Assembly (NCBI GenBank): GCA_040390725.1
Contig: JAZJXT010000001.1
Location: forward strand, 152,586-216,585
Length of the DNA stretch: 64,000 nucleotides
Direction: 5' to 3'
From: Patescibacteria group bacterium
Lineage (GTDB): Bacteria; Patescibacteriota; Minisyncoccia; Phycocordibacterales; UBA9973
Shown: positions 104-22,866 of the stretch, one piece after another
Layout: every line of letters starts with the position of its first letter
Numbering within the stretch: position 1 is the stretch's first letter
Notes under the pieces: model-generated
The model's input: the letters and a program-made list of their open reading frames with translations, nothing else
Database searches by the model: none
What the model was told of the DNA's origin: nothing
Program-made: the position numbers and the translations under genes

Positions 104-1498
104 ATGTCCCAAAAAATTTCAAAATTTTTAATTCTCACTTTGGCATTTGCGTCATTTATTTTTCTACCGAGTTTTTCTTCAGCTCAAGCAACATCATATT
201 ACTATAATTGGTATTTAGATACTGATACAACAGGTACAAAAGGACCATTTACATCACTAGAGCTTTGTGAGCAGGATGCTAGTGCGGGAGTATCTTCCGG
301 GGCGTATCAATCAACAGATCCTTGTTATACTGCTGCTACGCCATTAGGTTTGAGTTCTGGAAATTTAACTCCAAATTCTGCCGATGTTATAGCCACAGGT
401 CTTATTCCGAATACTGCATATCGTATCAGTATTTATTGGAAAAATAATCCTACAGATCAAGGTTATAGCAGGAAAGATGTGAGTTTTACCGCTAATAATT
501 CAGGCACTGAGACGGCATCTTTTTCTTCTATTCCTCCATCAATATCTTATGATGCTCGTTTATATAAAGTTTCAACGGGGCAGGTATTAAAAACTACAAC
601 TTTTACTACTAAAGCATTGCAAATAAGTGTGACACTTAGAGATTTAACAGCGACATCCAGTGAATTAATAGCCGGCGGGCTTTTCCCATACGGTACTGAT
701 TCGTATCTTTTTACTGTTTTAGTTACTTCTCCCGGTACTGCTTCAAATACTCAAAAACAAACAGTGACTCCCAGCAATAGCAATATAGCTACGGCTACAT
801 TTTCTGATTTGATTCCAGGGGTTTCATACACATTGATTATTTCCCATGGCAATCAAGACGATTTAAAAGAATTTGATTTTACAAAAGCTTTTCATGGTAT
901 TTGTGGTTCTGCCAATGGTCAATCTTTTCAAACAGCACCCACCGGGGATACGAATCTCTGCTCTGTAGGTATTTCTGATTCAATGACTGAAGACATAGCT
1001 TCATGGACATGGACATGTAAAATAAAAGATTCAAATGATTCTTCTACCAGTCAATATTGCTCCGCCACTAAGGCAGGGAATCCACCTCCGCCGACTCCTC
1101 CGACACCTCCATCATCAGGAGGCAAGGGTTTTGTCGGTGCTTTAGTTCCTTGCGGAATAAGTGAAAACAAGCTCAATACCAATGCGGTCACGGGCGCTCA
1201 GACGGGAGGAGGGGTCACACAGCCTTGCGGTTTTTATGATCTCCTAACTCTTGTAAATAACGTTGTAAGATTTATTATTTTTAATTTAGCTTTGCCCATA
1301 GCTGCTATCATGTTTGCTTATGCGGGTTTTCTACTTATCACTGCGGGGGGAGAGTCTGGTCAAATGACAAAAGCAAAAGGTATTTTTTCCGCAGTTGTGA
1401 TGGGCCTTATTTTTGTCGCGGCTGCATGGCTCATAGTGAAGCTCATTTTGGTTGTATTGGGTTACAAATCCGATTGGATAACTTGGTTTGGATTTTGA
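104..1498 (+). CDS. Secreted multidomain protein: signal peptide, FN3-like beta modules, Cys-rich region, Pro-rich linker (PPPPTPPTPP) and a C-terminal VirB2/TrbC-like pilin domain (two TM helices)
   Basis: ORF track 464 aa. N-terminal signal peptide ending SSAQA. The C-terminal about 110 aa have the same Cys-pair, two-TM architecture as the five downstream small paralogs. The stop overlaps the next start. Confidence 0.6.
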   Translation: MSQKISKFLILTLAFASFIFLPSFSSAQATSYYYNWYLDTDTTGTKGPFTSLELCEQDASAGVSSGAYQSTDPCYTAATPLGLSSGNLTPNSADVIATGLIPNTAYRISIYWKNNPTDQGYSRKDVSFTANNSGTETASFSSIPPSISYDARLYKVSTGQVLKTTTFTTKALQISVTLRDLTATSSELIAGGLFPYGTDSYLFTVLVTSPGTASNTQKQTVTPSNSNIATATFSDLIPGVSYTLIISHGNQDDLKEFDFTKAFHGICGSANGQSFQTAPTGDTNLCSVGISDSMTEDIASWTWTCKIKDSNDSSTSQYCSATKAGNPPPPTPPTPPSSGGKGFVGALVPCGISENKLNTNAVTGAQTGGGVTQPCGFYDLLTLVNNVVRFIIFNLALPIAAIMFAYAGFLLITAGGESGQMTKAKGIFSAVVMGLIFVAAAWLIVKLILVVLGYKSDWITWFGF

Positions 1499-1895
1499 AA
1501 TAATGTATAATAAAGATATGAATTTTAAATTAAAAAATTTTATAGGAATGTTCACAGTCGGTATTTTTGCTTTTTTTATTTTAGTTTTGCCGGTTGTTTC
1601 TCTTGCTAATACCGACAATACAGCTCCTGCTACTGTTCAAGTCGTCAATCCTATCAGCGTGAATGATCTAAATGGTTTTCTTAAAGTTATTTTAGAAGGC
1701 GTAGTTAAAATCGGTATGCCTATTATTGCCCTTGCTATTATTTATTGTGGCTTTCTTTTTGTTTCCGCTCAAGGCAACACAGCTGAGCTAGAAACAGCCA
1801 AGAAATCTCTGATGTATACTCTCATAGGAGCAGCATTATTATTAGGCGCTTGGGCTATAGCTCAGCTCATAACAGAGACTATTACAAGCCTTTAA
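1488..1895 (+). CDS. VirB2/TrbC-like T4SS pilin family protein (paralog 1)
   Basis: 135 aa: signal peptide, then two hydrophobic helices separated by a short polar loop (PIIALAIIYCGFLFVSAQGNTAELETAKKSLMYTLIGAALLLGAWAIAQLI). The start is ambiguous (ATG at 1488, 1503 or 1518). Confidence 0.55.
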   Translation: MDFEIMYNKDMNFKLKNFIGMFTVGIFAFFILVLPVVSLANTDNTAPATVQVVNPISVNDLNGFLKVILEGVVKIGMPIIALAIIYCGFLFVSAQGNTAELETAKKSLMYTLIGAALLLGAWAIAQLITETITSL

Positions 1896-1899
1896 AATT

Positions 1900-2265
1900 A
1901 TGAAGAAATTTATTTTATTTTCTTTAATTTCTCTTACTCCTTCATTTGTTTTTGCGCAGGCTTCGAGTCCCGTATGCAGTATCGGTACAAACTTCAAAGA
2001 TCTTGTTAATTATATATCTTGCCTTATAGAAGGGTCGGTGATTCCTTTTATATTCGGTTTAGCTGTCGTTGCATTTGTCTGGGGTGTTGTGAAGTTCCTC
2101 ATGAGTGCTGAGGATGAAACTCAAAAATCCCAAGGCAAACAATTCATGCTTTGGGGCATCATAGCTTTGGCTGTGATGGTGTCCATCTGGGGTTTGGTAA
2201 AATTACTGACCAATACTTTCGGAGTAAAATATGTTATTCCTCAGGTTCAAAATAAATCACAATAA
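1900..2265 (+). CDS. VirB2/TrbC-like T4SS pilin family protein (paralog 2)
   Basis: 121 aa: signal peptide, a Cys pair before TM1 and the conserved core ...FVWGVVKFLMSAEDE..KQFMLWGIIALAVMVSIWGLVKLLTNTF. Confidence 0.6.
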   Translation: MKKFILFSLISLTPSFVFAQASSPVCSIGTNFKDLVNYISCLIEGSVIPFIFGLAVVAFVWGVVKFLMSAEDETQKSQGKQFMLWGIIALAVMVSIWGLVKLLTNTFGVKYVIPQVQNKSQ

Positions 2266-2281
2266 CAATAACAATAACAAT

Positions 2282-2890
2282 ATGAAAAAATTTATAATTT
2301 TATTTTGTATAATAGTTCTGGCATTATCTTTTAAAATGGCTTTTGCTCAGTACAGCTGGAATTGGACTAATTATTCCGGGACTAATCAAAATATGAATGG
2401 ATCTGGCCTCACTACTCAGGGTACAAATACATGGGGAGGTACTACTCCTACGAATCCTTGGGGTTGGGGTTTTGGCTGGGGTAATGTAGCGCCTGTGATG
2501 AAGGTCCAAGGCCAGAAGCAAGTCGTCGGGGATAAACAAATCGTCGGCTCTACCAGTGATGCTATTACAGGTTCCGCTATGCCTTTTTCCTGTGCATTTA
2601 ATAACAATAATCCTACAGCCAAAGATATATTTAATTATGGTACCTGCGTACTAGGGAATTCTATTATTCCTCTTTTATTTTTATTTGCTTCTATTGTTTT
2701 TATGTGGGGTGTCATCCAATACGTTATCGGTGGACAAGAAGAAGCAAAAAAGGATAAAGGAAAGCAGTTTATGTTTTGGGGCATTATTGCCCTTTTTGTG
2801 GCTGTTTCGGTATGGGGATTAGTAGGTATTTTAACCGGTACATTTAATCTGAAAACCACTGCGCCGTCAGTACAGCCGGTTTCCGAGTAG
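2282..2890 (+). CDS. VirB2/TrbC-like T4SS pilin family protein (paralog 3) with a Gly/Trp/Asn-rich N-terminal extension
   Basis: The start is taken at MKKFIILF (ATG 2282) rather than the track start at 2231. The C-terminal core FMWGVIQYVIGGQEEAKKDKGKQFMFWGIIALFVAVSVWGLVGILTGTFNL matches the paralogs. Confidence 0.6.
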   Translation: MKKFIILFCIIVLALSFKMAFAQYSWNWTNYSGTNQNMNGSGLTTQGTNTWGGTTPTNPWGWGFGWGNVAPVMKVQGQKQVVGDKQIVGSTSDAITGSAMPFSCAFNNNNPTAKDIFNYGTCVLGNSIIPLLFLFASIVFMWGVIQYVIGGQEEAKKDKGKQFMFWGIIALFVAVSVWGLVGILTGTFNLKTTAPSVQPVSE

Positions 2891-3010
2891 TCCACAGTAT
2901 TGTTTGCAGGCTGTGAGATGGTTGTGATACAATATACGTGCCTAATATTTTAGGAAATTATTATTAACAGGTCGTTTATTATTATAAATTAAGATTTAAG
3001 AATTTTTATT

Positions 3011-3397
3011 ATGAAAAAGAAATTTATCGTGTTGGGTAGCGTTTTGTCTTTTGCGCCGATGCTTGCTTTCGCGCAGACAGTTTGTACTACAAATGTTGGA
3101 ACTATCGACTGGCTATTGTGTAGAGTGGGAGATTTACTAAACACAGTTGTGCCTGTGCTTATCGCTTTAGGTGTTGTTTACTTCATCTGGGGTGTCGTTA
3201 CTTATGTAGTTGCAGGTGATGAAGAAGCAAAGAAGACAGGACGAGACAGAATGATCTACGGTATCATCGGTCTAGTTGTTATCGTGTCTATCTGGGGATT
3301 GGTTAGTATCTTGAAGAGTACATTCAATCTTTCAAGTTCAAACCCTGGCACTGTGCAAGTTCCTTGTATTCCTATCCCTCCAAACGTAACTTGTTAA
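3011..3397 (+). CDS. VirB2/TrbC-like T4SS pilin family protein (paralog 4)
   Basis: 128 aa: signal peptide, Cys pair and the core YFIWGVVTYVVAGDEEAKKTGRDRMIYGIIGLVVIVSIWGLVSILKSTFNL. Confidence 0.6.
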   Translation: MKKKFIVLGSVLSFAPMLAFAQTVCTTNVGTIDWLLCRVGDLLNTVVPVLIALGVVYFIWGVVTYVVAGDEEAKKTGRDRMIYGIIGLVVIVSIWGLVSILKSTFNLSSSNPGTVQVPCIPIPPNVTC

Positions 3398-3413
3398 TTT
3401 AATTTTTAATTAG

Positions 3414-3770
3414 ATGAATTTATTTTCTGTAAACATAGCTTATGCTGCGACTTCAAGATTTGATACATTTATCAGCAATGTTGATAGCAAAATTATCAAT
3501 CCGCTTATAATTTTATTATTTGTCTTGGCTATCGCTTATTTTTTGTGGGGAGTCTTTCAATTTATCTCCAATCAAGATAATGAAGAAAAAAAGACCGACG
3601 GCAAAAATCATATGATTTATGGAATATTGGGGCTGGTTATCATGATCAGTGTCTGGGCTATTCTTCAGGTTATTTTAAACACCTTGGATATACAAAAGTC
3701 TGGTCAGATAAATCCTGAAGAGGGAACAGTGCACTTAAATGATTACAATCCTCCATCATCTAATAATTAA
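3414..3770 (+). CDS. VirB2/TrbC-like pilin family protein (paralog 5, divergent, no obvious leader)
   Basis: 118 aa with the core AYFLWGVFQFISNQDNEEKKTDGKNHMIYGILGLVIMISVWAILQVILNTL. It is followed by a strong terminator. Confidence 0.5.
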   Translation: MNLFSVNIAYAATSRFDTFISNVDSKIINPLIILLFVLAIAYFLWGVFQFISNQDNEEKKTDGKNHMIYGILGLVIMISVWAILQVILNTLDIQKSGQINPEEGTVHLNDYNPPSSNN

Positions 3771-3840
3771 AAACGCAAAAAAAGAAAAAAATATAGGCGT
3801 ACCGAAAGGTACGCCTATTGCGTTTTTACGCGTTTTTTTA
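3770..3840. terminator. Bidirectional rho-independent terminator between convergent genes
   Basis: Nested inverted repeats aaaacgca.../taggcgtacc-gaaa-ggtacgccta/...tgcgtttt with T-runs on both strands. Confidence 0.6.
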
Positions 3841-4401
3841 TTGCCAGACTTCAAATTCTGTGAAGCCTGATTTTTCCTCCGACCGGAATATATAAGTTCC
3901 GGGCGGGTCATGGCGGTTTAATTTAATGCCTGGCGCATCATGGTAAGTTTCCCCGTCCGGGGTAGTTACCTTGACTTTGCCATACATTACTGTCGACGAC
4001 TCGTAAGTTTTCACAATAACCTTTGTGCCGTCTTTAGTGGCAACATATGAGGTTCTTACTTTTCCTACGGGGACAGTATTTGTACTTCCAGTGTTTCCAG
4101 TACCATCTTTTTTTGGTGCTGGATCAGAATGCCAAAACATAAATTTAAATATCCAGGCCATAATCATAAAGGCCAATGTAATTGGAACCCATTTTGAGAA
4201 CCATGACCCGAAACTAAACTTATGACCGTGACCACTTGCGTGACCACCAGAATGAGCATCACCATGTTCAGATTTGGAAACTGCTTTTTTGACAGCTTTG
4301 CCTGCTCCTGAAAATAGTTTTCTAAGAACAGAACCAAAGAACAACAAGGCAATCAGGGCAAGAATTACCCAGGGGGTGAGATTTATGAATATTAAATTCA
4401 T
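3838..4401 (-). CDS. Hypothetical membrane protein with a His/Gly-rich loop
   Basis: 187 aa: N-terminal TM, a HGDAHSGGHASGHGHK loop and a second TM. It overlaps the upstream gene by 4 nt, so an operon is likely. Confidence 0.45.
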   Translation of the reverse strand: MNLIFINLTPWVILALIALLFFGSVLRKLFSGAGKAVKKAVSKSEHGDAHSGGHASGHGHKFSFGSWFSKWVPITLAFMIMAWIFKFMFWHSDPAPKKDGTGNTGSTNTVPVGKVRTSYVATKDGTKVIVKTYESSTVMYGKVKVTTPDGETYHDAPGIKLNRHDPPGTYIFRSEEKSGFTEFEVWQ

Positions 4402-5786
4402 ATTGCACCTCCCTTGGCTTCTGTGATAGCGCTAGCTATCATCAGTGCGATTTTGTCATAATCGTTTCCTGACCCACTTCGGCTTGTCAGATAGGTGTGT
4501 TTGCTTTTTTCGAATGCTGTTACTTCTGCTTGAAGTTCCATCATTCTTGTGGCATCAACACCAGCGTTTTTGGCTTCTTCTAAGTAAGCCTTTAGTGCAA
4601 GTGCCTTACCTTCACCTTCTTGTGTCAGTCTAACTTTTTCACCTTCAGCAACTTGTATTGCCTTAAGTTTGTCTCCCTTACCAGCAATTTCTTTTTTGTC
4701 AGAGACAAAAACTTCGGCTAAGGCGTCGTTGACAGCATCATGGATACTTTTGGAAGCACCCAGGGCAATAACACGAGAATCCAGACAATCGAGCCCTAAT
4801 TTACCTTTTTCAATGAGAGTTTTAACATCTCTGGTAAGTGCCTTATCAAGTACGTCTTTGGTCTGAAGAAATATCAACATCGCATAAGTGTACTTTTTGA
4901 ATTCTGTATTAATTGTGCTTTTCACCATTAACGCTACTTGGCGCCCAAATTCCTTTTTGCGCTTTTCTGGATTTTCACCTGCAACGTTTTCAACATACAG
5001 TACTAAATTACTTTTTTTTGTAGTGATTACTACTGTTGGCTGTAAAACAATTTGCTTGTGGTTTGGGTCTTTCAAAATCCTCTTCTTGTCTTCTTCAGAA
5101 AAGATAAGATTACCATTTTCATCTTTTTCTTCCCAATTTACTAATTCAGGACTTCCTGTTGTGACATCATTTAAGTGATGGATCATAAGATTTTCCTGTT
5201 CTTCTTTAGAAAAATCTTTGTCTATCTCTGCTTGCTCCACTGCTGTTATCATGTCTACAAGATTAGTATTTGTGTCTTTGCTTATACTCATCAATCCGGG
5301 ACAAATTAAACAGGGATGTCCCGCATTAGTTGTTCCGAGAGCTAAGCCTCGAGCAAAGTAAATTACTGCAATTTCGTCTGGCTCTTGACTGTTCCATGAC
5401 AATTTAATAATGGCAATTGGCCAAATAAAAAGTAAAACAGCCCACAAGTTTAAGCGAAATCCAGGGAATTCAAATGCCATGAAACTTAGATCTATGGTAG
5501 ATTTTCCTATCTCGAATTGTCCGAGATTATGATGAAAAATCCATACCCACATAACAAATAACCAGGGCAGGGCCATTCCAAAAAAGTTCAGGAACCAGAA
5601 AATCTTTATACGATCTTCTCTTCCTTCTATTGGATTAGGATACAAACTCCTCAGAGCCTTACCTATTGTCTTTAGGTTACTTGAAAACCAAGCACTGATT
5701 TTATTTAGTTTGCCGATAAGCCAAAATAGGCTGACCGCTAACCATTTGAGAGCTTTGTCTCCCATCTTTTTCATAAGATTTTTCAT
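4398..5786 (-). CDS. Hypothetical membrane protein with a possible SPFH/band-7-like C-terminal region
   Basis: 462 aa: N-terminal TM helices; the C-terminal half is charged and helical (..EGEGKALALKAYLEEAKNAG..). The domain assignment is tentative. Confidence 0.4.
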   Translation of the reverse strand: MKNLMKKMGDKALKWLAVSLFWLIGKLNKISAWFSSNLKTIGKALRSLYPNPIEGREDRIKIFWFLNFFGMALPWLFVMWVWIFHHNLGQFEIGKSTIDLSFMAFEFPGFRLNLWAVLLFIWPIAIIKLSWNSQEPDEIAVIYFARGLALGTTNAGHPCLICPGLMSISKDTNTNLVDMITAVEQAEIDKDFSKEEQENLMIHHLNDVTTGSPELVNWEEKDENGNLIFSEEDKKRILKDPNHKQIVLQPTVVITTKKSNLVLYVENVAGENPEKRKKEFGRQVALMVKSTINTEFKKYTYAMLIFLQTKDVLDKALTRDVKTLIEKGKLGLDCLDSRVIALGASKSIHDAVNDALAEVFVSDKKEIAGKGDKLKAIQVAEGEKVRLTQEGEGKALALKAYLEEAKNAGVDATRMMELQAEVTAFEKSKHTYLTSRSGSGNDYDKIALMIASAITEAKGGAI

Positions 5787-6021
5787 AACACTATATATTA
5801 AAAATTAAAATTGATTACTCATTAAAGTCTTTTGTTTTTTTACCCCACCACTTCAGGTGCAAATAAAAAATGTTTTATTAAAAGACTTATTCTGAGCAAC
5901 CAATCAAATTTAAATTTTTGTCAAAGGACGGAGTCCAGCAATAGTGTATCACAATCAAACGAAAAAGTCAACCCTTGTGGGGCTGACTTTTTATGTTGAA
6001 ATATAAGGCTAGATTTCGAGA

Positions 6022-6816
6022 TTATTCGTGTTTCATTGGTTCGTTGTGAAAGTCTTTTTCAAAAAAACCTTTTCTGATTATTAACACTAATACTAGGATA
6101 AGAATCGCAAGCAATAACCATTGAAACAAAGTCGAAGGCAAGAATCCGTGCCATGCAAAGAGGGAATTAGCAGCTAGGTTTGATTTGTCTACAGTAGCGC
6201 TGGCAGGGGTTTCTGTTTTTGCTGTGGTTTTTGTCGAAGTGCTTTTTGATACAGTTTGTGTTGGTGCAGGGCTCGGTGCAGGGTTTACATAAGCTACCAC
6301 CGAAGCTGTAGTGACCGTGAAGAATACTCCATTTGAAGTTCCTCCGCTCGGCATCGGGTTAAAAACACTGATCACATATTTACCGGGAGTCATGACGTCA
6401 CTTGCATTTAAGGTGACTGTTAATTTACCAGAGTTGTTATAGCTGGTAGGGCGGTATGAATTATTGAATTCAGCCATTGAGCCGGGGATAAAGTTTGACC
6501 CTGTTAAAACTACAGCCATGTTTCCGCTTATTTCCGTGACTTCATTTGGACTTACGGAATAAAGTATAGGCATAGGGTTTGAAGTGTTTGAGTTGGTATT
6601 ATTGGTATTGTTGTAATTATAAGTACCGTTTTGATTGTAGTTGTAGTTATAAGATCCATCAGTAGCTCCGCTTTCATAAGAGTATGAATCGCTATATGAT
6701 GCATTTACTTTCATGGGCATTGCTACCAAGGCTAGGGCTAGCACTGCTAATACTCCAAAGCTTTTAAATATTAAGTTTTTATTTATTGATGTATTCATAT
6801 ATAGAAAGTATAGCAC
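6022..6816 (-). CDS. Secreted Asn/Tyr-rich protein with an IPT/TIG-like beta domain and a C-terminal TM anchor
   Basis: 264 aa: signal peptide, low-complexity N/Y/T stretch, PILYSVSPNEV..GKLTVTLNASDV..GKYVISVFNP..FFTVTT and a C-terminal hydrophobic anchor. Confidence 0.5.
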   Translation of the reverse strand: MLYFLYMNTSINKNLIFKSFGVLAVLALALVAMPMKVNASYSDSYSYESGATDGSYNYNYNQNGTYNYNNTNNTNSNTSNPMPILYSVSPNEVTEISGNMAVVLTGSNFIPGSMAEFNNSYRPTSYNNSGKLTVTLNASDVMTPGKYVISVFNPMPSGGTSNGVFFTVTTASVVAYVNPAPSPAPTQTVSKSTSTKTTAKTETPASATVDKSNLAANSLFAWHGFLPSTLFQWLLLAILILVLVLIIRKGFFEKDFHNEPMKHE

Positions 6817-6881
6817 CTTTCAATCTAAATGTCAAGCTTTTTTGCTTACATTTTTACCCTTATTTTATAAGGTTTAAATTG

Positions 6882-6963
6882 TGCCCGGAGTGGGGGTCGA
6901 ACCCACATCCCTTGCGAGACACGATTTTAAGTCGTGCGCGTATACCAATTCCGCCATCCGGGC
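6882..6963 (-). tRNA. tRNA-Leu (anticodon UAA), type II with long variable arm; CCA not encoded
   Basis: Cloverleaf read by eye: acceptor GCCCGGA/TCCGGGC, D-arm GCGGAATTGGTATACGC identical to bacterial tRNA-Leu, anticodon loop CTTAAAA. Confidence 0.8.
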
Positions 6964-6977
6964 ATTATTCAGTTTTG

Positions 6978-7049
6978 AGGCCTAGGACGGAATCGAACCG
7001 TCGTATAAAGATTTTGCAGATCTTTGCCTTACCACTTGGCGACTAGGCC
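6978..7049 (-). tRNA. tRNA-Cys (anticodon GCA); CCA not encoded
   Basis: Acceptor GGCCTAG/CTAGGCC, anticodon stem AGAT/ATCT with loop CTGCAAA, T-arm GACGGTTCGATTCCGTC. Confidence 0.8.
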
Positions 7050-7214
7050 TTATTTATTTATTTTACAAATATATCTCCAATTTTAATATCTGCGCAGATC
7101 TTTGACTATTAACCCACTTGGCGACTAGGCCTTATTTATTTATTTTACAAATATATCTCCAATTTTAATATCTGCGCAGATCTTTGACTATTAACCCACT
7201 TGGCTACTAGGCCG
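7014..7214. repeat. Tandem roughly 80-bp direct repeats of the tRNA-Cys 5' half plus its upstream flank (about 2.5 copies)
   Basis: gcagatctttg..cacttggcgactaggccttatttatttattttacaaatatatctccaattttaatatc recurs at about 7016, 7094 and 7177 (last copy partial, ggctactaggccg variant). Confidence 0.8.
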
Positions 7215-7291
7215 TTTGTATAATCTAACATTTTTTTAAAAACTTTCAAAATATAAATAATTATGCTAAATTAAATATGAGTTAAAAACAT

Positions 7292-7367
7292 GCACCCATA
7301 ACTCAGCTGGTAGAGTAGCTCCCTCTTAAGGAGAATGTCGGAGGTTCGATCCCTCCTGGGTGCACCA
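7292..7367 (+). tRNA. tRNA-Lys (anticodon CUU), CCA encoded
   Basis: Acceptor GCACCCA/TGGGTGC, D-arm ACTCAGCTGGTAGAGT, anticodon loop CTCTTAA, T-arm GGAGGTTCGATCCCTCC. Confidence 0.75.
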
Positions 7368-7368
7368 T

Positions 7369-7459
7369 GCTGGAGTGGCGGAATTGGTATACGCGCTAGT
7401 CTTAGGAACTAGTACCGCAAGGTTTGAGGGTTCGAGTCCCTCCTCCAGCACAATTGTAA
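7369..7459 (+). tRNA. tRNA-Leu (anticodon UAG), type II; CCA not encoded
   Basis: Acceptor GCTGGAG/CTCCAGC, Leu-type D-arm GCGGAATTGGTATACGC, anticodon stem CTAGT/ACTAG with loop CTTAGGA, long variable arm. Confidence 0.8.
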
Positions 7460-7461
7460 AA

Positions 7462-7785
7462 TTACTTTTCTCGAAGCAATTCGTCAATTTTTTGACGATT
7501 CTTTTCACCGCGGTCTATTTGGATGTCGATGAAGGGTATTGTTTTTACTTCCATATTTTTTTTCAAGAAATCTCGCAGGTCCGCTCTTTTTCTTTTTGCA
7601 AAGTCGAGTGCATCATGCTCTTTTGACTCAGGAAGTACTGTTATAAATATCGTTGCCTTTTTTAAATCAGGGGAACATGTCGCGGATGTCACAGTCACAA
7701 GGGAAGTCCTGTTATTTTCCCGCCCTAAAAACTCAGCGGAAAGCTTTTTTATAAATTGCGCAATTTTTTCATTTCTTTGTATCAT
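7462..7785 (-). CDS. rbfA: Ribosome-binding factor A
   Basis: 107 aa. TSLVTVTSATCSPDLKKATIFITVL...DLRDFLKK.MEVKTIPFIDIQID matches the RbfA KH-like pattern, and it sits immediately downstream of infB. Confidence 0.75.
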   Translation of the reverse strand: MIQRNEKIAQFIKKLSAEFLGRENNRTSLVTVTSATCSPDLKKATIFITVLPESKEHDALDFAKRKRADLRDFLKKNMEVKTIPFIDIQIDRGEKNRQKIDELLREK

Positions 7786-7867
7786 GTGTGTAGTGAATTG
7801 TGAAGATTTTCGCCTGCGGGCACTGGCCCCGTTTTGTCCGCCAGAAAATTTTCACAATTCATGAAAC

Positions 7868-9397
7868 TTATCTTTGTGTCACTGAAAATGATTCCAAGAC
7901 ATCTCCGGAAACAATTTCAATTTTTGATTCGACCATAGTTCCAAATTCCGAACCTTCTTCTACCTCGCTTACTTTTGCTTTACTCTTTTCCAAATTCACT
8001 ATCTTGCCTTTACCTATTTCGAAATCTCGGCGCATTATTTTAACAGTTTCACCTAGGGTAATTTTACCCTCAGTAACTTTCCCTCCGACTATTTGTCTTT
8101 CTTTTGTTCTGCTAAAAGCTTTGATGATTTTTGCTTTGCCTTTTGTCTCAGTAGTTTCTACTCGCGGGCGTCTTTTTTCCATTTCTTCCGCGAGCCATTC
8201 TGTCATTTTGTAAATGATGTCAAAGTGGTTTATTGTGATGCCTCTATTCAATGCTAGCTCGGTGGCATTTTTATCTATTTTTACATTGAAGCCTATTACC
8301 AATACATCACCCGGAATAGTGATATTTTTAATATCTGATTCCAATATTGGTCCTGTGCCTTTTTGAATTATTTTAAATTCTGCGCCGTCACTTTTTATTT
8401 TAGCTATTTCTTTTTCCACGGCTTCGAGTGAGCCGGCAACATCTGTTTTAATAACTATCGGAATGATTTTATTGCCTAACTTGGGAGCTGAGCTCCCAAG
8501 TGGGAGCTCAGCTCCCAAGTTCTTGAAATTCTCAACATATTTCTCAGCATCCTGTTTCTTGTCGAAAGTTTTAAACTCTGCACCGATTTTAGGTACTTTG
8601 TCGAAGCCTACGAGCCTGATGGGGGATGAGAAGCTAGCATCGTTTACCATTTTACCTAAAAAGTTTTCTATGATGCGAGTGGAGCACATAGCATCTTCTA
8701 CCACTACAGTCATACCATTTTTAAGCGAGCCATTTTTGATAATAAGGGTGGCTTGGATTCCGCGTTTTGAGTCTAGGTGAGCTTCGATGACGTAGCCTGA
8801 AGCATTTTCATCAAGAGTGCCGGTGAAGTTTTCAAGTTCCGCTAAAATTAAAATAAGTGAAAGCAAATTGTCTACACCTGCCCCAGTCTTTGCAGATATT
8901 TCCGCAAAAGGAGTTTTGCCCCCGTAATTTTCCAAATAAATTTCATTCTCAGCTAGGCTCATTTTTGTTCTTTCGATGTCCGCACCCGGTTTGTCTATTT
9001 TATTTATTGCTACGATGCAAGGGGTATTACTAGCAACTATTGTCTTCCATGCTTCAACTGTCTGTGGCTTGACGCCGTCTTCTGCTGATACTACGAGTAT
9101 CGCGATATCGGCGAGCTTTGCTCCGCGTTCACGCATTTTAGAAAAGGCTTCATGTCCCGGTGTATCCAAAAATGTAATTTTTTTTATGTGCTCGCCTGCC
9201 CCGTTGAAAGTACTCTTTCCTTCGGGGTCTTTATGAATAACTTCATAAGCAGAAATATGCTGAGTGATGCCTCCGGCTTCGCGTTCTACGACATTTGATT
9301 TACGGATGTAATCCAAAAGAGTCGACTTGCCGTGGTCGATATGTCCCATCACTGCCACTACCGGTGGTCTTTCAATTGTATTTTTTTCTTTTTCCAT
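7868..9397 (-). CDS. infB: Translation initiation factor IF-2 (short form lacking the long N-terminal region)
   Basis: GTPase motifs VAVMGHIDHGKSTLLD, FLDTPGHEAF, NKIDK; beta-barrel domains follow. Confidence 0.9.
   Translation of the reverse strand: MEKEKNTIERPPVVAVMGHIDHGKSTLLDYIRKSNVVEREAGGITQHISAYEVIHKDPEGKSTFNGAGEHIKKITFLDTPGHEAFSKMRERGAKLADIAILVVSAEDGVKPQTVEAWKTIVASNTPCIVAINKIDKPGADIERTKMSLAENEIYLENYGGKTPFAEISAKTGAGVDNLLSLILILAELENFTGTLDENASGYVIEAHLDSKRGIQATLIIKNGSLKNGMTVVVEDAMCSTRIIENFLGKMVNDASFSSPIRLVGFDKVPKIGAEFKTFDKKQDAEKYVENFKNLGAELPLGSSAPKLGNKIIPIVIKTDVAGSLEAVEKEIAKIKSDGAEFKIIQKGTGPILESDIKNITIPGDVLVIGFNVKIDKNATELALNRGITINHFDIIYKMTEWLAEEMEKRRPRVETTETKGKAKIIKAFSRTKERQIVGGKVTEGKITLGETVKIMRRDFEIGKGKIVNLEKSKAKVSEVEEGSEFGTMVESKIEIVSGDVLESFSVTQR
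8480..8519. repeat. Tandemly duplicated GC-rich palindrome (cttgggagctgagctcccaag x2) in frame within infB
   Basis: Read directly. It encodes LGAELPLGSSAPKLG and its composition differs sharply from the flanking AT-rich coding sequence. Confidence 0.7.
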
Positions 9398-9409
9398 TTT
9401 ATTTTCTTT

Positions 9410-9880
9410 TTACTTTATTTTTGCTTTTTCCAGAACCCCTTTTTCTTCTTCAGTGAGTTCGTATTCTGATTTGCCGTTTTTAATCGGCTTGGCGAATACG
9501 CTCATCCTGTCCCTGGAATACAAACTAGAAATTATTACTCCGTCGTTTTCTTCATTTATCATGCCGATAGCAAAGCTTTGGTTACTGCCTTGGTCAGGAA
9601 AAGGGTTGAAGCGTAAAGTTTCGAGTCCGCGAATACTTTTTTTTAATTTAGCATTCATTATTGCATTTTCTTTTTCAAAATTTTCTTTCGCTTGTTTTAG
9701 TTTTGTGATTTCATCTTGCATACTAGCGATAGTATCTTCTAAGTCTTGCGCTTTTTTGCCTAGGAAAAATCTTTTCAATCGGGATTCTGTTTTGACAACC
9801 CAAAAAATACCTATTATTATGGCTATGCTGGTTAAAATAAAAAAAACCAAAACAAACATGTCGGGGAGCTTTATATTCAT
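9410..9880 (-). CDS. Membrane-anchored coiled-coil protein (possibly DUF4446-like) upstream of infB
   Basis: 156 aa with an N-terminal TM and a coiled coil (DLEDTIASMQDEITKLKQAKENFEKE). The family assignment is uncertain. Confidence 0.45.
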   Translation of the reverse strand: MNIKLPDMFVLVFFILTSIAIIIGIFWVVKTESRLKRFFLGKKAQDLEDTIASMQDEITKLKQAKENFEKENAIMNAKLKKSIRGLETLRFNPFPDQGSNQSFAIGMINEENDGVIISSLYSRDRMSVFAKPIKNGKSEYELTEEEKGVLEKAKIK

Positions 9881-9937
9881 ACCATTTCAATATATACTAC
9901 TTTTATGCGAAAATCAACCAAAAAACCAAATAAAATC

Positions 9938-11041
9938 TATATGGACTACGCGTCTTCTTTTTCACCGAACCCGAGCTCTATACATGGTTTGGGTGTTGAG
10001 GCTAAAAAGAAACTAGAAAATGCTCGCAAGGAAACGGCGGAGCTTTTATATGCGCGTCCGGATGAAATTATTTTTACTAGCGGAGGAACGGAAAGTAATA
10101 ATCTTGCCATTTTAGGAGTTTTTAAAAATTTAAAAAATCCGCATATCATTACTACAAACATAGAACATGCTTCAGTACTAGAAGTTTTTAAACATTTGGA
10201 AAAAACAAAACAAGCGGAAGTTACTATTGTTCCAGTTGAAACAAATGGCATAGTTGATCCGAAAAAAATCAAAAAAGCGATTAAGGAAAATACTGTTTTA
10301 ATTTCTGTAATGTATGCGAATAATGAAATAGGAACTATTCAACCGATTCGTGAAATTGTGAAAGAGGTGAGGCATTATAGAAAAAATGCAAAAAGTACTT
10401 TTCCTTTTGTACATACCGATGCAGTGCAGGCGGGTAATTATTTGGATTTGAATGTTGAAAGGCTAGGTGTAGATATGATGTCTTTGAGTGGTTCAAAAAT
10501 TCAAAATGCTGGCAGAGTTGGGGTGTTGTATACAAAAAGAAAAACACCAATTAGTTCGATAATGTTTGGTGGTGATCAAGAAGGGGGACTTCGACCAGGT
10601 ACAGAAAATTTGCCGGCAATTTTGGATTTCGTAAAAGCATTTAAAGAAGTTAGAAAAATAAAAGATAAAGAAATAAAAAGATTAACAAAGTTGAGAGATT
10701 ATTTTATTCAGAAATTATTACATTCTAACATTATCAATAATGTCATAATGTTAAATGGCGACGCGAAAGAAAGATTGCCAAATAATATAAATATAACAAT
10801 ATCAAAAATACCTAGCGACCTTTTGGTGCTCGAGCTTTCCGCGCGAGGTATATATGTTTCTGAAAAAAGCGCTTGCAAGTCAGGGGATACAGAATCTTCT
10901 CACGTCATCCGTGCAATTTGCAAAAAAGATTCTCAATCCTTGCGCTTTTCTATGGGCAGATCAACAGCCAAAGCCGACATTGATTACACATTAAAATCCC
11001 TTTCCCAAATTTTGCAAAAATTAAAAAAGTGGTATACTTAA
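9938..11041 (+). CDS. Cysteine desulfurase / class V aminotransferase family protein (NifS/IscS-like)
   Basis: IFTSGGTESNNLAIL.., HTDAVQA.., the PLP-Lys region SLSGSKIQNAGRVGVLY, and ..GTENLPAI. The start could be 9905 or 9938. Confidence 0.7.
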   Translation, partial: YMDYASSFSPNPSSIHGLGVEAKKKLENARKETAELLYARPDEIIFTSGGTESNNLAILGVFKNLKNPHIITTNIEHASVLEVFKHLEKTKQAEVTIVPVETNGIVDPKKIKKAIKENTVLISVMYANNEIGTIQPIREIVKEVRHYRKNAKSTFPFVHTDAVQAGNYLDLNVERLGVDMMSLSGSKIQNAGRVGVLYTKRKTPISSIMFGGDQEGGLRPGTENLPAILDFVKAFKEVRKIKDKEIKRLTKLRDYFIQKLLHSNIINNVIMLNGDAKERLPNNINITISKIPSDLLVLELSARGIYVSEKSACKSGDTESSHVIRAICKKDSQSLRFSMGRSTAKADIDYTLKSLSQILQKLKKWYT

Positions 11042-11052
11042 GTGTAAATAAT

Positions 11053-11916
11053 ATGAAAGAAGCAGATTTTAACCAATTAAATAAAGATTTTACTGAAGCT
11101 CAGGAAAAAGCAAACAAAGCTATCAAGCCAAATGCTAAAGATTTAAAAGTTCTCGACGACGCAAGGGGTTCTTTTATTAAGGCTGCACGCTTGGATTATA
11201 TTAAGACTCGTGAGTTGCAACTCTCAGAAGCGCAAAATTTAAGTCTTCCTAATGCCGTTGATAAAAAAAAATATAATACTCAGCAATCCCAAAAAGAAAT
11301 AGATCCGGAAAAATTAGAAAAAGAAGTGTGTGATATAGCACGGGAATTGCTTCATAGATTACCTGAATGTACAGAGGCAGAGGTAAATAATGCAAAAATT
11401 TCCATAATTACAAAATTGCCACCTTCTGAATTAAAAGATTATAAAAATACAAGCGAGGTTAATCAAGGGTTTGGAAAATGCTCATATAATTCAAAAACAT
11501 TTGCTGTTGATTATATGGAAAAACAGGAAAAACCAAAAGTACAGCTTCTCGGCGGGCAATATATTATGGAGAATTTTTCTTTTTCGGATGTTCACAATCC
11601 CAGGTATGAAGCCATTCATATTTTATCAGGGAAATATGAAGACAACGAAAATAATGCAGACAATCGTCGTTTCCCAGATGTCAGGGACATTATGTACTTT
11701 CTTAATCTGGAAAAAGATAAAATTCCAGAAGAAATGAAAGTAAAAGGAAAAAAGTACTATTTTCCAGGGTCATTTTTTTATAATAAATATAATACCGCTC
11801 ATCTTTTTTGTTTAATATGGAATGGCGAGGATTTTGAGTTAAGATCAGAAGCACTAAAGGGGGATCTTATGAATGATGATGTTATTGTTCTTATTGCTTC
11901 ATCTAAAAATAAATAA
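11053..11916 (+). CDS. Hypothetical protein
   Basis: Long ORF with no recognisable motif; start chosen at MKEADF. Confidence 0.4.
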   Translation: MKEADFNQLNKDFTEAQEKANKAIKPNAKDLKVLDDARGSFIKAARLDYIKTRELQLSEAQNLSLPNAVDKKKYNTQQSQKEIDPEKLEKEVCDIARELLHRLPECTEAEVNNAKISIITKLPPSELKDYKNTSEVNQGFGKCSYNSKTFAVDYMEKQEKPKVQLLGGQYIMENFSFSDVHNPRYEAIHILSGKYEDNENNADNRRFPDVRDIMYFLNLEKDKIPEEMKVKGKKYYFPGSFFYNKYNTAHLFCLIWNGEDFELRSEALKGDLMNDDVIVLIASSKNK

Positions 11917-11952
11917 TTTTACAAAAAAATAATAGGGGAGTATAATTGAATT

Positions 11953-12534
11953 ATGGATATAAAAGAATTAAATAGGACACAAATGATCATGTTGGCTTTA
12001 CTTTTGAGCTTTGTCACTTCTATTGCCACGGGGATAACTACAGTGACTTTGATGCAACAAGCACCGAGTTCTGTAACTGTACCTATTAATCGTATTGTCA
12101 GGGAGACAGTTGAAAAAGTAGTACCGGCGGATACCTTGAATAAGATTCCAGCATTATCAACAGATCAACAGCAATTGCTCGAAGACTTGAAAGCTATCAA
12201 GCCTCTCACTGTTTCTTTATTTTTAAAAGGCATGAAAGATGATGGTAGTGATGACAAAATTTTGGGCACCGGATTGTTTTTAGGTAATGACAAAGTCGTG
12301 ATAGCTTCAGTAATATCTGCACCAAAAGAAGGCGAGGTGTACGTAGTAAAAAGTGTTTTAGGCGAACAAAAGATTTTAAAAGTTACAGCTGAGAAAGATT
12401 TTACAATTGTTGAACTTGTAAATAATGACACTACTGTTACTCCTGATGCTGGTAAAAAAACTGATACCACCACAGCGCCTGCCGGCACGACTACCACACC
12501 GGATACAACTCAAAATACAGCACCTGCTCAGTAG
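11953..12534 (+). CDS. Hypothetical membrane-anchored protein with a Thr-rich C-terminus
   Basis: 193 aa with an N-terminal TM and a C-terminal TTTAPAGTTTTPDTTQNTAPAQ tail. Confidence 0.45.
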   Translation: MDIKELNRTQMIMLALLLSFVTSIATGITTVTLMQQAPSSVTVPINRIVRETVEKVVPADTLNKIPALSTDQQQLLEDLKAIKPLTVSLFLKGMKDDGSDDKILGTGLFLGNDKVVIASVISAPKEGEVYVVKSVLGEQKILKVTAEKDFTIVELVNNDTTVTPDAGKKTDTTTAPAGTTTTPDTTQNTAPAQ

Positions 12535-12578
12535 ATTTAGGTATTTGACTTTTTATTATTATATGTTATATTATAAAT

Positions 12579-15251
12579 ATGCCTCCATTAAATAAATTTA
12601 CAACAAAAGCCAAAGACGCAATAAAAAAGGCTCACGAGCTGGCCATTGAGCGCGGGCAAAATCACGTGTCTTCTTTGCACCTACTCGCTTCGCTTTTACT
12701 CCAAGAAGAAAGTATGGTGAATTCTATTTTAGATAAATTGGAAATAGATGTAATGCTTTTGACTGACAATGTTTTGGATTCTATTGAATTACCGGAATCT
12801 CGCAGTACTCTTTCACCGGCTTATCAGATTTATTTGAATCCTGACTTGGCGCAAGTCATAGAGCTTTCAGCAAAATTAGCAGAATCATTAAAGGATGATT
12901 TTGTTTCGACCGAACATCTTTTTATCGCGATATTAGACGTGCCGAGTGAAGCACGAGAGACCTTGGCGCGTTTTAGAATACACAAAGATCCTGTGATGAA
13001 AGTTTTAGAAGAACTTCGCAGTCAAAATATCACTGATGTTTCAGAAACTAAAAAGTTTCGATTCTTACCGAAATATACTCGCAATTTGAGCAAGCTCGCA
13101 AAGGAAGACAAGCTCGACCCTGTCATCGGACGCGACAATGAAATAATGCGCATAATGCAAATCCTTTCTCGAAGGACAAAAAATAATCCTATCTTGATAG
13201 GTGAGGCCGGCACCGGTAAAACTGCCGTAGTAGAAGGCCTCGCGCAAAGGATTGCTAAAAATGATGTCTCTGAATCTTTGAAAGATAAAGAATTAGTTTC
13301 GCTTGATTTAGGTTCTTTGATTGCCGGTACAAAATATCGTGGAGAGTTTGAAGAACGCTTGAAGGGAATCATGAAAGAAGTAGAACGCGCTGATGGAAAA
13401 ATAATTTTATTTATCGACGAGATACACACTATAGTTGGCGCAGGAGGTGCAGAAGGCACCATGGATGCTTCAAATATGTTGAAGCCTGCTTTAGCTCGCG
13501 GAGAATTGCGCGCAATAGGGGCTACTACTTTGCGCGAATACCAAAAACATATTGAAAAAGACCCCGCCCTCGCAAGACGTTTTCAGCCTGTATATATTGA
13601 TGAGCCTAGTATTGAGGATGCGATTGCAATTTTGCGCGGATTAAAAGAAAAATACGAACTTTTTCACGGTGTGCGTATCACTGATGATGCGATTCTTTCT
13701 GCGGTGAATCTTTCTTCACGATATATTACAAACAGATTTTTACCAGACAAAGCAGTGGATTTGATCGATGAAGCATCTTCTTCTTTGAAAATTGCATTGG
13801 AAAATAAACCACCTGTCCTAGAAGAAGCGCACAGAAAAATAATGCGTTTGGAAATTGAAAAAGAAGCATTAAAAAAAGAAACTGAAAATAAAGATGCCAA
13901 GAATCGCGTAAAAGATATCGATAAAGAAATAGGCAACCTTCATGAAAAAACAAAAGAGCTCGAATTAAAATGGCAAAATGAAAAAACAATCGTCATAGAA
14001 ATTCGTGCTATTAAAAAAGAATTAGAATCACTTCGTCTAGAAGCCGAGAATGCCGAAATGCGCGCCGATCTTTCTCGCGCCGCAGAGATTCGTTATGGTA
14101 AAATTCCTGAATTAAAAAAGGAACTTGAAATAAAACTTCTTCGTTTAAAGAAATTACAAAAATCTCGCAGGATTTTAAAAGAAGAAATTACTGCGGAAGA
14201 TATTGCCGAAGTTGTAGCTCGTTGGACAGGTATTCCTCTTGTAAAAATGCTCGAAGAAGAACGTGCAAAACTCGAGAGGATGGAAGGCGAACTCGCAAAA
14301 CGAATAGTCGGTCAAGAAGAAGCCGTAAAAAGAGTTGCGGATGTTATTCGTCGTTCGCGCGCGGGTATTTCTGATCCAAACAGACCTATCGGTTCATTTA
14401 TTTTTCTTGGTCCTACCGGTGTGGGTAAAACAGAGCTCACAAAGGCTTTGAGTCAGTTTATGTTCAATGATGACAGAGCACTTATCCGTGTGGATATGTC
14501 TGAATATATGGAAAGACATTCTACTTCGAAACTTATCGGTTCGCCTCCGGGTTATGTGGGACACGATGAAGCTGGACAGCTCACTGAGGCAGTGCGTCAC
14601 CGTCCATATTCAGTGATACTTTTTGACGAGATTGAAAAAGCGCATCCGGAAGTTTTCAATATGCTTTTACAAGTTCTCGATGACGGCAGACTGACTGATG
14701 GAAAAGGCCGAGTAGTTAATTTTAAAAATACAATAATAATTTTGACTTCAAATATCGGTTCGCAATTTGTGGAGAAAATGGAATCCATCGGTTTTTCCAA
14801 TCACTCTGATGTTGAAAATTACGGCGCGATGAAAGAAAAAGTGACCGAAGCGTTAAAGGATCATTTTCGTCCTGAATTTTTGAATCGGTTGGATGAAGTT
14901 ATTATTTTTGATATTTTGCCGGAGAAAGCTATCAAGGAAATTGTAGGCTTGCGTGTGAAAGTCGTTGAAGACCGCCTGGCTACCAAAGGCATTAATTTCC
15001 AAATTTCAAATGATGCTTTGGCCTACCTCGCAAAAGAAGGCTACAATCCGCATTACGGCGCGCGACCATTAAATAGACTTATTCAAAATAAAATTCTTAA
15101 TCCTGTAGCTTCACACATTATTTCCAACGGCGTAAAGAAAGGGGATACAGTCTTTGTGTCAGTAAAAAATAACGAGCTTGTTATTGAAACTAAGAAAAAT
15201 AAAATCAAAAGCTCGATGAAAGTAAAAACCGCCTCGCCATATGCGGTATAA
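12579..15251 (+). CDS. clpB: ATP-dependent chaperone ClpB
   Basis: 890 aa: Clp N-domain, NBD1 Walker [10 protein letters not shown], a long middle coiled coil, NBD2 Walker [10 protein letters not shown] and the sensor motifs. Confidence 0.95.
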
Positions 15252-15259
15252 TTAAAATT

Positions 15260-17011: not shown

Positions 17012-17065
17012 GAAATCTTATAAAAAGATGCAAAAAATTTAATTTTGTGGTATTTTGTATTGCAT

Positions 17066-17148
17066 GCGTCGGTGGTGGAGTGGTCTATCACAACAGACTG
17101 TAAATCTGTCGCCTTCGGGCTTCGTAGGTTCGAATCCTACCCGGCGCA
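17066..17148 (+). tRNA. tRNA-Tyr (anticodon GUA), type II long variable arm; CCA not encoded
   Basis: Acceptor GCGTCGG/CCGGCGC, anticodon stem-loop CAGACTGTAAATCTG as in bacterial tRNA-Tyr, variable arm CGCCTTCGGGCTTCG. Confidence 0.8.
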
Positions 17149-17220
17149 CAAGAATTATACACTCAATATCCACTTTTATTTTGTATATCTATTGTGTATC
17201 TGTGCAATTTATACTAAAAT

Positions 17221-20796: not shown

Positions 20797-20807
20797 GCTA
20801 ACGGCCC
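20735..20807 (-). tRNA. tRNA-Ala (anticodon UGC), G3:U70 present; CCA encoded (to 20732)
   Basis: Acceptor GGGCCGT/ACGGTCC with G3-U70, D-arm AGCTCATCTGGTAGAGC, anticodon loop TTTGCAA, T-arm GGCAGGTTCGAGTCCTGTA. Confidence 0.8.
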
Positions 20808-20843: not shown

Positions 20844-20886
20844 GTTGCTCTCACGAGGCGCTACAGATGAGTTAACGGCCCGTATT
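20844..20886. repeat. Partial duplicate of the tRNA-Ala 5' half plus upstream flank
   Basis: gctctcacgaggcgctacagatgagttaacggcccgtatt versus the tRNA-region gctctaccagatgagctaacggcccgtatt. Confidence 0.65.
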
Positions 20887-22006: not shown

Positions 22007-22083
22007 TTTCTGCTAGACTGGAAGTGTTCTTTAATTAGTAAAGAAACATTCGGGAGTAGCTCAGCGGTAGAGCGATCGCCTGT

Positions 22084-22646: not shown

Positions 22647-22691
22647 TAAGCGATTGGTCGTAGGTTCGATCCCTACCTCCCGAGCCAGTTA

Positions 22692-22728: not shown

Positions 22729-22866
22729 TATCTCGGGAGAGAAAGCCAACTGCTTGGCTTTCGTGTAGGGAGCGAACAACGGAGCAATAAATTTTCAGTA
22801 GAAAATTTTGTGAGTTGGTGCCCAGACAAAATTTTTTGGCGAAAAAATTTTAGTCGAGGGAGATAC

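Follow-up and report, generated by a model that had tools for sequence, protein, structure and literature searches.

The tandem array that precedes the tRNA-Cys gene in the DNA studied here is probably a slippage-amplified member of a conserved family of upstream pseudo-tRNA repeats, and it is likely transcribed as a leader. The array was studied within a stretch of 64,000 nt, called the window below, which comes from a metagenome-assembled genome. The host lineage is a CPR/Nomurabacteria-like bacterium with a tiny genome. In the collections searched, no strain-level relative of the window was found; the nearest IF2 was 79% identical and was annotated as Candidatus Nomurabacteria. An exact look-up of the RbfA of the window in the contig index gave no match.

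The genuine tRNA-Cys(GCA) gene occupies positions 6977-7049 on the minus strand (ARAGORN; Rfam tRNA, 64.3 bits). Tandem Repeats Finder reported an array at 7032-7213 with a period of 82, 2.2 copies, 99% matches and a score of 357. In a repeat search of the window, segments 7032-7113 and 7114-7195 were found to be 100% identical, and a partial third copy at 7196-7221 matched at 85%, its part 7196-7213 differing by a single G->T change on the plus strand. Two 82-nt units, each composed of a 44-nt truncated copy of tRNA-Cys and a 38-nt AT-rich spacer, occupy positions 7050-7213. Read in the direction of tRNA-Cys, on the minus strand, the order is promoter, distal (outer) pseudo-copy (7213-7170), spacer (7169-7132), proximal (inner) pseudo-copy (7131-7088), spacer (7087-7050) and tRNA-Cys. 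The two spacers have the same sequence, the proximal one ends at the tRNA-Cys +1, and nt 1-18 of the gene form the third, innermost direct repeat.

On the minus strand, each unit reads GGCCTAGT(C/A)GCCAAGTGG-GTTAATAGT-CAAAGATCTGC-GCAGAT, followed by the spacer. A pseudo-copy is therefore made up of tRNA-Cys nt 1-18, GTTAATAGT, nt 25-35 and the return strand GCAGAT. The D region is altered in the pseudo-copies, where GTTAATAGT replaces TAAGG of the gene; the D-loop segment is GTGGTAAGGC in the gene and GTGGGTTAATAGTC in the copies. GCAGAT closes the anticodon loop of the pseudo-copy into the palindrome ATCTGCGCAGAT (7088-7099, with a second copy at 7170-7181), in which the loop is "zipped" by GCAG in place of AAA. 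Position 9 is C in the proximal pseudo-copy and in the tRNA-Cys gene and A in the distal pseudo-copy (GGCCTAGTAGCC), as in the relative L081. No complete cloverleaf was found in the pseudo-copies: ARAGORN and Rfam RF00005 detected only 6977-7049 in the array stretch, even at E<=10. The original prediction had described tandem repeats of about 80 bp that duplicate the 5' half of tRNA-Cys together with its flank, with minor variants between the gene and the copies. This description was borne out, including the variants that it listed. The repeats were recovered by self-comparison of the stretch, and the similarity across 82 identical nucleotides is far beyond chance.

The array is adjoined by rbfA and a short infB, and ClpB and T4SS-type pilins are encoded at a greater distance. 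Three other tRNA genes, detected by ARAGORN and Rfam, lie nearby. tRNA-Leu(UAA) (6881-6963, minus strand) follows tRNA-Cys on the same strand at a distance of 13 nt, and tRNA-Lys(CUU) (7292-7367, plus strand) and tRNA-Leu(UAG) (7369-7451, plus strand) form a divergent pair. These four tRNA genes follow infB-rbfA in 80 species genomes, in which their order and orientation are highly variable; the divergent layout of the window, with tRNA-Leu(UAG) and tRNA-Lys on one strand and tRNA-Cys and tRNA-Leu(UAA) on the other, was also seen in several metagenome contigs. The tRNA-Cys and tRNA-Leu(UAA) genes are adjacent in most relatives, and we infer that they are co-transcribed.

The tRNA-Cys promoter on the minus strand (7222-7249) consists of TTGAAA (7249-7244), a 16-nt gap and TAGATT (7227-7222), which is preceded by TG. 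The end of its -10 hexamer and the outer pseudo-copy are 8 nt apart, a spacing that is conserved in relatives. On the plus strand, a putative tRNA-Lys promoter, TTTCAA-N17-(TGc)TAAATT (7244-7272), was read from the sequence; it scores below the threshold of the promoter scan and shares its -35 hexamer with the tRNA-Cys promoter. The 78-nt block that contains both promoters (7214-7291) could be aligned with seven relatives, three of which lack the element, giving eight species in total. In element-less relatives, the -10 hexamer ends about 8-10 nt ahead of the tRNA-Cys +1. Where it falls in the end of rbfA, it is TAGGAT or TAATAT and is paired with TTGACG at a distance of 17 nt upstream; in divergent layouts, it is TAGATT, paired with TTGAAA. 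In element-bearing relatives, the same promoter stands at the same spacing ahead of the pseudo-copy. A bipartite promoter with a -10 hexamer ending 5-11 nt upstream was found before the pseudo-copy in 26 of 53 elements and before the real tRNA in four. A proximal promoter within the spacer was also considered and was rejected, since apart from these 4/53 bipartite matches the spacers showed only a weak A/T pattern.

The outer pseudo-copy thus stands 8 nt past a conserved promoter, at the position of the tRNA +1 in relatives, which argues that the 164-nt array is most likely the transcribed 5' leader of a tRNA-Cys/tRNA-Leu(UAA) transcript. The 164-nt array RNA would then be removed from the precursor by RNase P. 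When the precursor was folded in silico, the outer pseudo 5' strand could capture the 3' strand of the tRNA acceptor, and the two palindromes could pair with each other. These predicted pairings represent a possible way in which the leader might interfere with maturation. The folding z-score of the whole precursor was -3.47, which is a trivial effect of the repeated palindromes.

The distribution of the element in related organisms was then considered. Of 69 related species genomes, 13 have the unit directly upstream of tRNA-Cys. In these species, it has a shared architecture: nt 1-18 of the own tRNA, an insert YRTGAGCGTAGCGAA, a variable linker, nt 25-35 of the own tRNA, a return strand that closes the loop, an AT-rich spacer and the true tRNA. 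A self-search of each locus showed that in many relatives the copy of tRNA-Cys nt 1-18 lies 70-100 nt upstream of tRNA-Cys. Metagenomes were scanned with a pattern that required the tRNA 5' end to occur twice at an appropriate distance and left the intervening sequence unspecified. This motif-agnostic scan yielded 66 contigs that carry the unit upstream of tRNA-Cys. The canonical insert YRTGAGCGTAGCGAA was present in about 50 of them, and the variant of the window, GTTAATAGA (GTTAATAGW, without the conserved motif), was present in four (L081, L108, L112 and L130). Two contigs, L142 and L143, contain two tandem Cys elements each. A 14-nt probe, allowed up to one mismatch, detected copies of the tRNA-Cys 5' end upstream in 46 of 103 distinct tRNA-Cys contexts; this sample had been enriched through the scan. 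The same probe gave 0 matches in the controls, downstream and on the reverse strand.

The closest counterpart of the array is found in L081, where tRNA-Cys and its unit align with the window at 80% over 165 nt and synteny extends across rbfA, infB and clpB. Therefore, the unit of the window can be regarded as the orthologue of a single-copy element that is doubled in the window; it is the proximal pseudo-copy that was matched to the L081 element. The element is scattered over the IF2 tree. Although the unit of L130 is the same as that of L081 and resembles that of the window, the IF2 of L130 is far from that of the window on the tree. Identical tRNA-Cys alleles were found with and without the element, and no difference in tRNA-Cys sequence was detected between element-bearing and element-less species. 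The element is dispensable. Some canonical elements are located directly after another tRNA (L067, L075 and L082), and therefore the unit travels with tRNA-Cys rather than with the promoter.

The relationship between pseudo-copies and their genes was assessed in 48 distinct elements by permuting the gene partners 10,000 times. The pseudo-copy agreed with its own gene at 141 of 144 sites for the variable positions 6, 9 and 17 (permutation maximum 117) and at 330 of 336 sites within nt 25-31 (permutation maximum 272); the sequences are related to one another, so these counts carry no formal probability. There were seven alleles at the first set of sites and eight at the second, all with the same insert. 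In the pseudo-copy of L111, the whole anticodon arm resembles that of the gene, as would be expected of a conversion tract. The close match between copy and gene, 141/144, argues for concerted evolution, in which the 18-nt direct repeats would undergo slippage or unequal exchange, a process from which both expansions and frequent losses of units would follow.

The following course of events may be proposed. In the ancestral state, which would persist in L081, the promoter was followed by one truncated pseudo-tRNA-Cys (about nt 1-43), an AT-rich spacer and the real tRNA-Cys; the 3' strand of the D-stem of this pseudo-copy would already have been destroyed and its anticodon loop closed to a hairpin. 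The 18-nt repeat common to the pseudo-copy and the gene would allow slipped-strand mispairing or unequal sister exchange. Such events could add units, as in the window (R-X-R-X-R), could remove a unit cleanly, giving a patchy distribution among species, and could keep the copy identical to its own gene. Because A9 is common to the outer pseudo-copy and L081, the outer copy is likely the older one. C9 in both the inner copy and the gene is what would be expected if the inner unit arose from the end of the gene by unequal exchange. The arrays, the A9/C9 pattern, the clean absence of the element beside identical alleles and the scatter over the IF2 tree all fit slippage or unequal exchange.

Signs of constraint on the element were sought in its sequence and predicted structure. 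In the canonical family, the insert motif showed a mean pairwise identity of 0.905 among 48 distinct elements, compared with 0.934 for nt 1-18, 0.394 for the spacer and 0.372 expected by chance. Because the motif is absent from the tRNA, it could not be maintained by conversion from the tRNA. This 15-nt insert is the only strongly conserved non-tRNA motif, and the variant of the window lacks it. Elsewhere in the loci, the motif matched only by chance, in coding sequence of L140 and in a tRNA-Leu remnant of L025. Relatives retain the anticodon hairpin with varied loops (GCGC, GTGC, GCGT, GGC and others), and in L087 it contains a compensating change. In a structure alignment, 82.7% of the cells were paired. 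Double-sided changes were restricted to the helix inherited from the tRNA anticodon stem, and no double-sided covariation was seen in a helix specific to the element. The sequence GA-GC-NNN-GC-GA, which could be read as a K-turn or mini-hairpin, and the enclosing GGCAT/ATGCC stem showed one-sided changes only, with frequent mismatches. Single units did not fold better than shuffled sequences (z between -0.6 and 0.9), RNAalifold found nothing more than a 2-bp stem in 14 elements, and the element had no match in Rfam.

Two other explanations of the motif and its hairpin were tried and rejected. A micro-ORF (GLVAKWHERSE) was suggested by variation with a three-base period in the motif (CAT GAG CGN AGC GAA), but it has no start codons and is interrupted by stops in L019, L047 and L067. 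An intrinsic terminator or attenuator would require a T-rich tract, but the 8 nt past the hairpin contained a mean of 2.8 T, and only 4 of 48 elements had at least five. No terminators were called in the units of the window.

As to function, it is rather likely that the leader is a tolerated by-product that recycles itself. A role of the leader RNA in cis, for example in how the precursor folds or is processed, or else as a small RNA, is a serious possibility, although we would put it somewhat below an even chance. A broader interpretation is offered tentatively and is, on balance, doubtful: the elements may form a Paceibacteria (CPR) family of promoter-proximal "5' tRNA-linked repeats", transcribed, disabled mimics of the first half of tRNA-Cys or tRNA-Lys and, singly, of tRNA-Ala or tRNA-Leu(UAG), which would tune the folding, RNase P processing or abundance of the next tRNA or would act as small RNAs, with a copy number set by slippage and with YRTGAGCGTAGCGAA as the functional core in most lineages.

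Arrays and units of this kind were also found at other tRNA genes. In relatives, tRNA-Lys has an upstream family of its own, in which nt 1-12 of this tRNA are followed by GTTTTGGTA at -71 to -75. Lys arrays have a period of 71 nt in L142 (2.3 copies, 97% matches), 38 nt in L143 (4.3 copies, 92% matches), 79 nt in L141 (2.2 copies, 100% matches), 36 nt in L044 (3 copies) and 74 nt in L013 (2 copies). The Cys arrays have a period of 96 nt in L142 (2.2 copies, 98% matches) and 79 nt in L143 (2.0 copies, 85% matches). An upstream copy of tRNA-Leu(UAG) was found at one locus, L029. All three versions, Cys, Lys and Leu, have a disabled 3' strand of the D-stem. The related pattern that the original prediction had pointed out at tRNA-Ala was likewise recovered in the window. 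Upstream of tRNA-Ala (20732-20807), a diverged 74-nt duplication comprises part of the flank and nt 1 to about 30. The pseudo-tRNA-Ala 5' part (20848-20881, minus strand) lies 74 nt upstream of the gene and contains a copy of nt 1-18 at 20864-20881 with 94% identity; it appears to be an older, diverged example of such a unit.

Copies of tRNA 3' ends were observed as well. In L043, L045 and L056, 19-nt copies of a tRNA-Leu 3' end, of the classical 3' type, lie about 100 nt downstream, and the 3' end of a tRNA that contains an intron recurs as a copy at window positions 22866-22881.

A purely neutral origin of the array would mean that a duplication of the flank and the tRNA 5' half has been regenerated and homogenised by slippage without any role as DNA or RNA. 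The element is missing from about 80% of related species with identical tRNA-Cys alleles, its distribution on the IF2 tree is patchy, neither structural covariation nor an energy signal was detected, and the variant of the window has lost the conserved motif, all of which would be expected of debris. However, debris would hardly keep a 15-nt motif that is absent from the tRNA 90% identical across 48 elements whose spacers are randomised, or a loop-closing hairpin that tolerates varied loops and shows a compensating change in L087. The same design also recurs at tRNA-Lys in many relatives and singly at tRNA-Leu(UAG) in L029 and at tRNA-Ala in the window. We regard the purely neutral explanation as rather unlikely. 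The suggestion that the repeats are pseudo-tRNA debris left by recombination stood insofar as the array would result from slippage or unequal exchange; it fell short insofar as the unit occurs throughout the lineage, co-evolves with the gene and carries a conserved motif in most relatives. An assembly artefact, in which the assembler duplicated a single true 82-nt unit, would account for 100% identical units in a metagenome-assembled genome. It is highly improbable, since the outer 18-nt copy differs by one base from the inner one, so that at least two pseudo-copies with distinct sequences are present, and since independent assemblies of other species show such arrays with 85-98% identity between units.

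The original prediction had also proposed that the repeats multiply a plus-strand sigma-70 promoter for tRNA-Lys and tRNA-Leu(UAG) or that they are relics of att sites, and neither proposal was supported. TTTACA-N16-TAATAT was indeed present in each unit on the plus strand (7062-7089 and 7144-7171), with 9 of 12 positions matching and directed at tRNA-Lys. However, 9/12 was the minimum of the scan, and matches of this strength are common here: the scan of 700 nt of AT-rich DNA gave seven promoter-like matches where 1.9 were expected. The unit of L081, which has no divergent tRNA, does not retain the match, and canonical elements also stand directly after rbfA or another tRNA, where a reverse promoter would have no target. 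The conserved, putative Lys-side promoter (7244-7272) lies outside the repeats, in the block 7214-7291, and is present in element-less relatives. Multiplication of a promoter is a very improbable explanation. Fragments left by a mobile element that integrated at tRNA-Cys and was then lost would agree with the fact that tRNA genes are common integration sites and that integration leaves partial tRNA copies (PMC9897764). The homology of the pseudo-copies breaks in the anticodon loop, which would also suit such an origin. The anticodon loop is reportedly the classic crossover position, as Williams is said to have described in 2002. Against this, the duplicated part is 5' (nt 1-18 and 25-35) and not 3', and only 38 nt of spacer, and no element, separate the copies. 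A Pfam scan of 18 ORFs (window 104-19068) revealed neither an integrase nor a recombinase domain, and 2.9 million viral contigs gave no matches. In all 66 metagenome matches, the pseudo-copy precedes the next copy by 72-101 nt, a range to be read with the design of the scan, which limited the distance to 83 nt beyond the copy so that larger inserts were undetectable. Relics of att sites can be given hardly any credence. A slippage-amplified member of an upstream pseudo-tRNA repeat family remains the preferred reading of the array.

Several known systems resemble the array in part. In prokaryotes, fragments of tRNA genes are known to arise when elements integrate and to occur as CRISPR spacers (PMC9897764). 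The units resemble att fragments in that a partial copy in direct orientation lies near an intact gene and the homology ends in the anticodon loop. However, att fragments are 3' parts with kilobases of integrase-bearing element DNA between them (PMC9897764), whereas the copies in the window are 5' parts separated by 38 nt without an element. For annotation, this is a warning that such units, which are partial copies of a tRNA, should be taken neither for att sites nor for CRISPR spacers.

In organelle genomes, pseudo-tRNA remnants arise from tandem duplication followed by random loss, and they decay freely. The similarity to the present case lies in the tandem duplication of a tRNA with its flank, the decay of one copy and the rearranged gene cluster. 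In contrast to such remnants, a copy of the type found in the window is identical to the gene at its 5' end and has the same disabled form across many species.

The tRNA-linked repeats (TLRs) of E. coli (Egan & Landy 1978; Rudd 1999; both as summarised in PMC8144298) offer a further comparison. According to that summary, they have been known since 1978, comprise 22 units at ten loci with one to five units per locus, and are mostly without known function, three of them being processed to Hfq/CsrA-binding RNAs; the TLRs that it describes are of the 3', downstream kind only. Like TLRs, which are located in tRNA or rRNA operons, the units of the window lie inside a tRNA operon, here between a conserved promoter and tRNA-Cys. 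The units of E. coli share 18-19 identical bp with one end of the adjacent tRNA, and those of the window share 18 nt. In both cases, the units are tandem: one to five per locus in E. coli, two in the window, and one in most relatives, about two in L142, L143, L141 and L013, three in L044 and 4.3 in the Lys array of L143. However, the repeat of the window precedes the gene and contains the 5' end of the tRNA that it adjoins, as a mirror image of a TLR. Its 18-nt identity lies at the 5' end of the unit, unlike that of the TLRs as defined in E. coli. It also keeps a disabled tRNA portion that extends much further, to about nt 43, and it would stand at the start of transcription and not before a terminator. 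The two kinds of unit were compared by description, and homology in sequence is not expected because of the phylum distance of the CPR host. In a limited literature search, no description of upstream repeats of the tRNA 5' end or 5' half in bacteria or CPR was found.

RNAs from the spacers of tRNA operons, such as the 3'ETS-leuZ sponge and RrA/B/F from TLRs, indicate that processed non-tRNA parts of a precursor can act (PMC8144298). For the present element, which is known from its sequence, they suggest a possible mode of action only. If the leader is functional, it would be a new link between a regulatory RNA and the identity of its tRNA. The elements stand as candidates for a class of tRNA leaders, and the RNA biology of their hosts is almost unexplored. 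They also provide a natural system for slippage-driven concerted evolution on an 18-nt repeat. Taken together, they may be regarded as a 5', upstream counterpart of the TLRs that is widespread in a lineage of the CPR, evolves together with its tRNA, and gains and loses units.

Among the loci of relatives of the window (L001-L146), at least seven arrangements of the tRNA-Cys, tRNA-Leu(UAA), tRNA-Lys(CUU) and tRNA-Leu(UAG) genes were found after infB-rbfA. Both gene order and orientation varied, single-gene inversions included, and this cluster is a rearrangement hot spot. In the window, three ORFs with a T4SS-pilin domain (PF18895) were found a few kb away from the cluster on the plus strand, at 104-1498, 3011-3397 and 3414-3770.

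A back-to-back promoter block was observed at 7214-7291 of the window and was conserved in L008, L045, L052, L060, L096, L129 and L138. In this block, the tRNA-Cys and tRNA-Lys promoters appear to share a single -35 hexamer (TTTCAA/TTGAAA). A different promoter was noted in L012, L024, L032, L066, L072, L079 and other loci, where the last codons of rbfA (…ATTGACGAAYTGCTNNGNGAAAAGTAG/TAA…) doubled as TTGACG-N17-TAGGAT/TAATAT. Because the -10 hexamer ended only 8-10 nt before the tRNA-Cys +1 position in most of these loci, tRNA-Cys transcribed from the rbfA end would, judging from promoter spacing, carry a leader of only approximately 1-3 nt. In L012, the hexamer stopped 21 nt ahead of +1.

Further kinds of pseudo-tRNA-Cys were detected upstream of tRNA-Cys (L083/L088, L104 and L131; L118 and L145; L110). 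In one kind, an almost intact 5' half with the acceptor GGCCACG was followed by CTG and then by a GC-rich hairpin insert, and another kind contained a D region with a CCCCGC…GCGGGG hairpin. In L110, a mini-tRNA-like unit was present in tandem. Two more conserved intergenic elements were rich in hairpins, e.g., CACCTCACCCGTCATCTTATTAAAGATGCCACCCTCTCC…GGAGAGGGTTAGGTGG; they occurred in L039, L043, L049, L051 and L076, where they lay between rbfA and tRNA-Cys, and in L021 and L025. Both filled the slot held by the pseudo-tRNA element in other species. A separate family of upstream pseudo-5' units was found for tRNA-Lys, consisting of its own nucleotides 1-12 and GTTTTGGTA…. These units were often arranged in tandem, with 2 to 4.3 units and periods of 36-79 nt (L141, 1370-1540; L142, 7003-7165; L143, 4812-4985; also L044 and L013).

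A split tRNA that was absent from the ARAGORN calls was found at 22050-22690 of the window (plus strand). Its 5' exon started with TCGGGAGTAGCTCAGCGGTAGAGCGATCGCCTGTGG and had the anticodon loop CTGTGGA (His-like GUG), and its 3' exon terminated in AGCGATTGGTCGTAGGTTCGATCCCTACCTCCCGAGCCA. The intervening intron, approximately 560 nt long, contained an HNH-like ORF (...CALLCANCHREVE...); a group I ribozyme within it, at 22369-22639, matched RF00028 with 70.8 bits.

The 3' end of this tRNA was copied approximately 190 nt downstream (CCCTACCTCCCGAGC, 22866-22881), which in arrangement is a classical 3'-type tRNA-linked repeat. Since CTCGGGAG at 22732 is complementary to this copy, the segment 22732-22881 (approximately 150 nt) could close as a long hairpin; the 8-mer occurred 4 times in the window versus 0.49 expected. 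Exact 19-nt copies of the tRNA-Leu 3' end were also located approximately 100 nt downstream of the gene in L043 (7599-7617), L045 (7570-7588) and L056 (7200-7218), and this arrangement is the one that defines the tRNA-linked repeats of E. coli.
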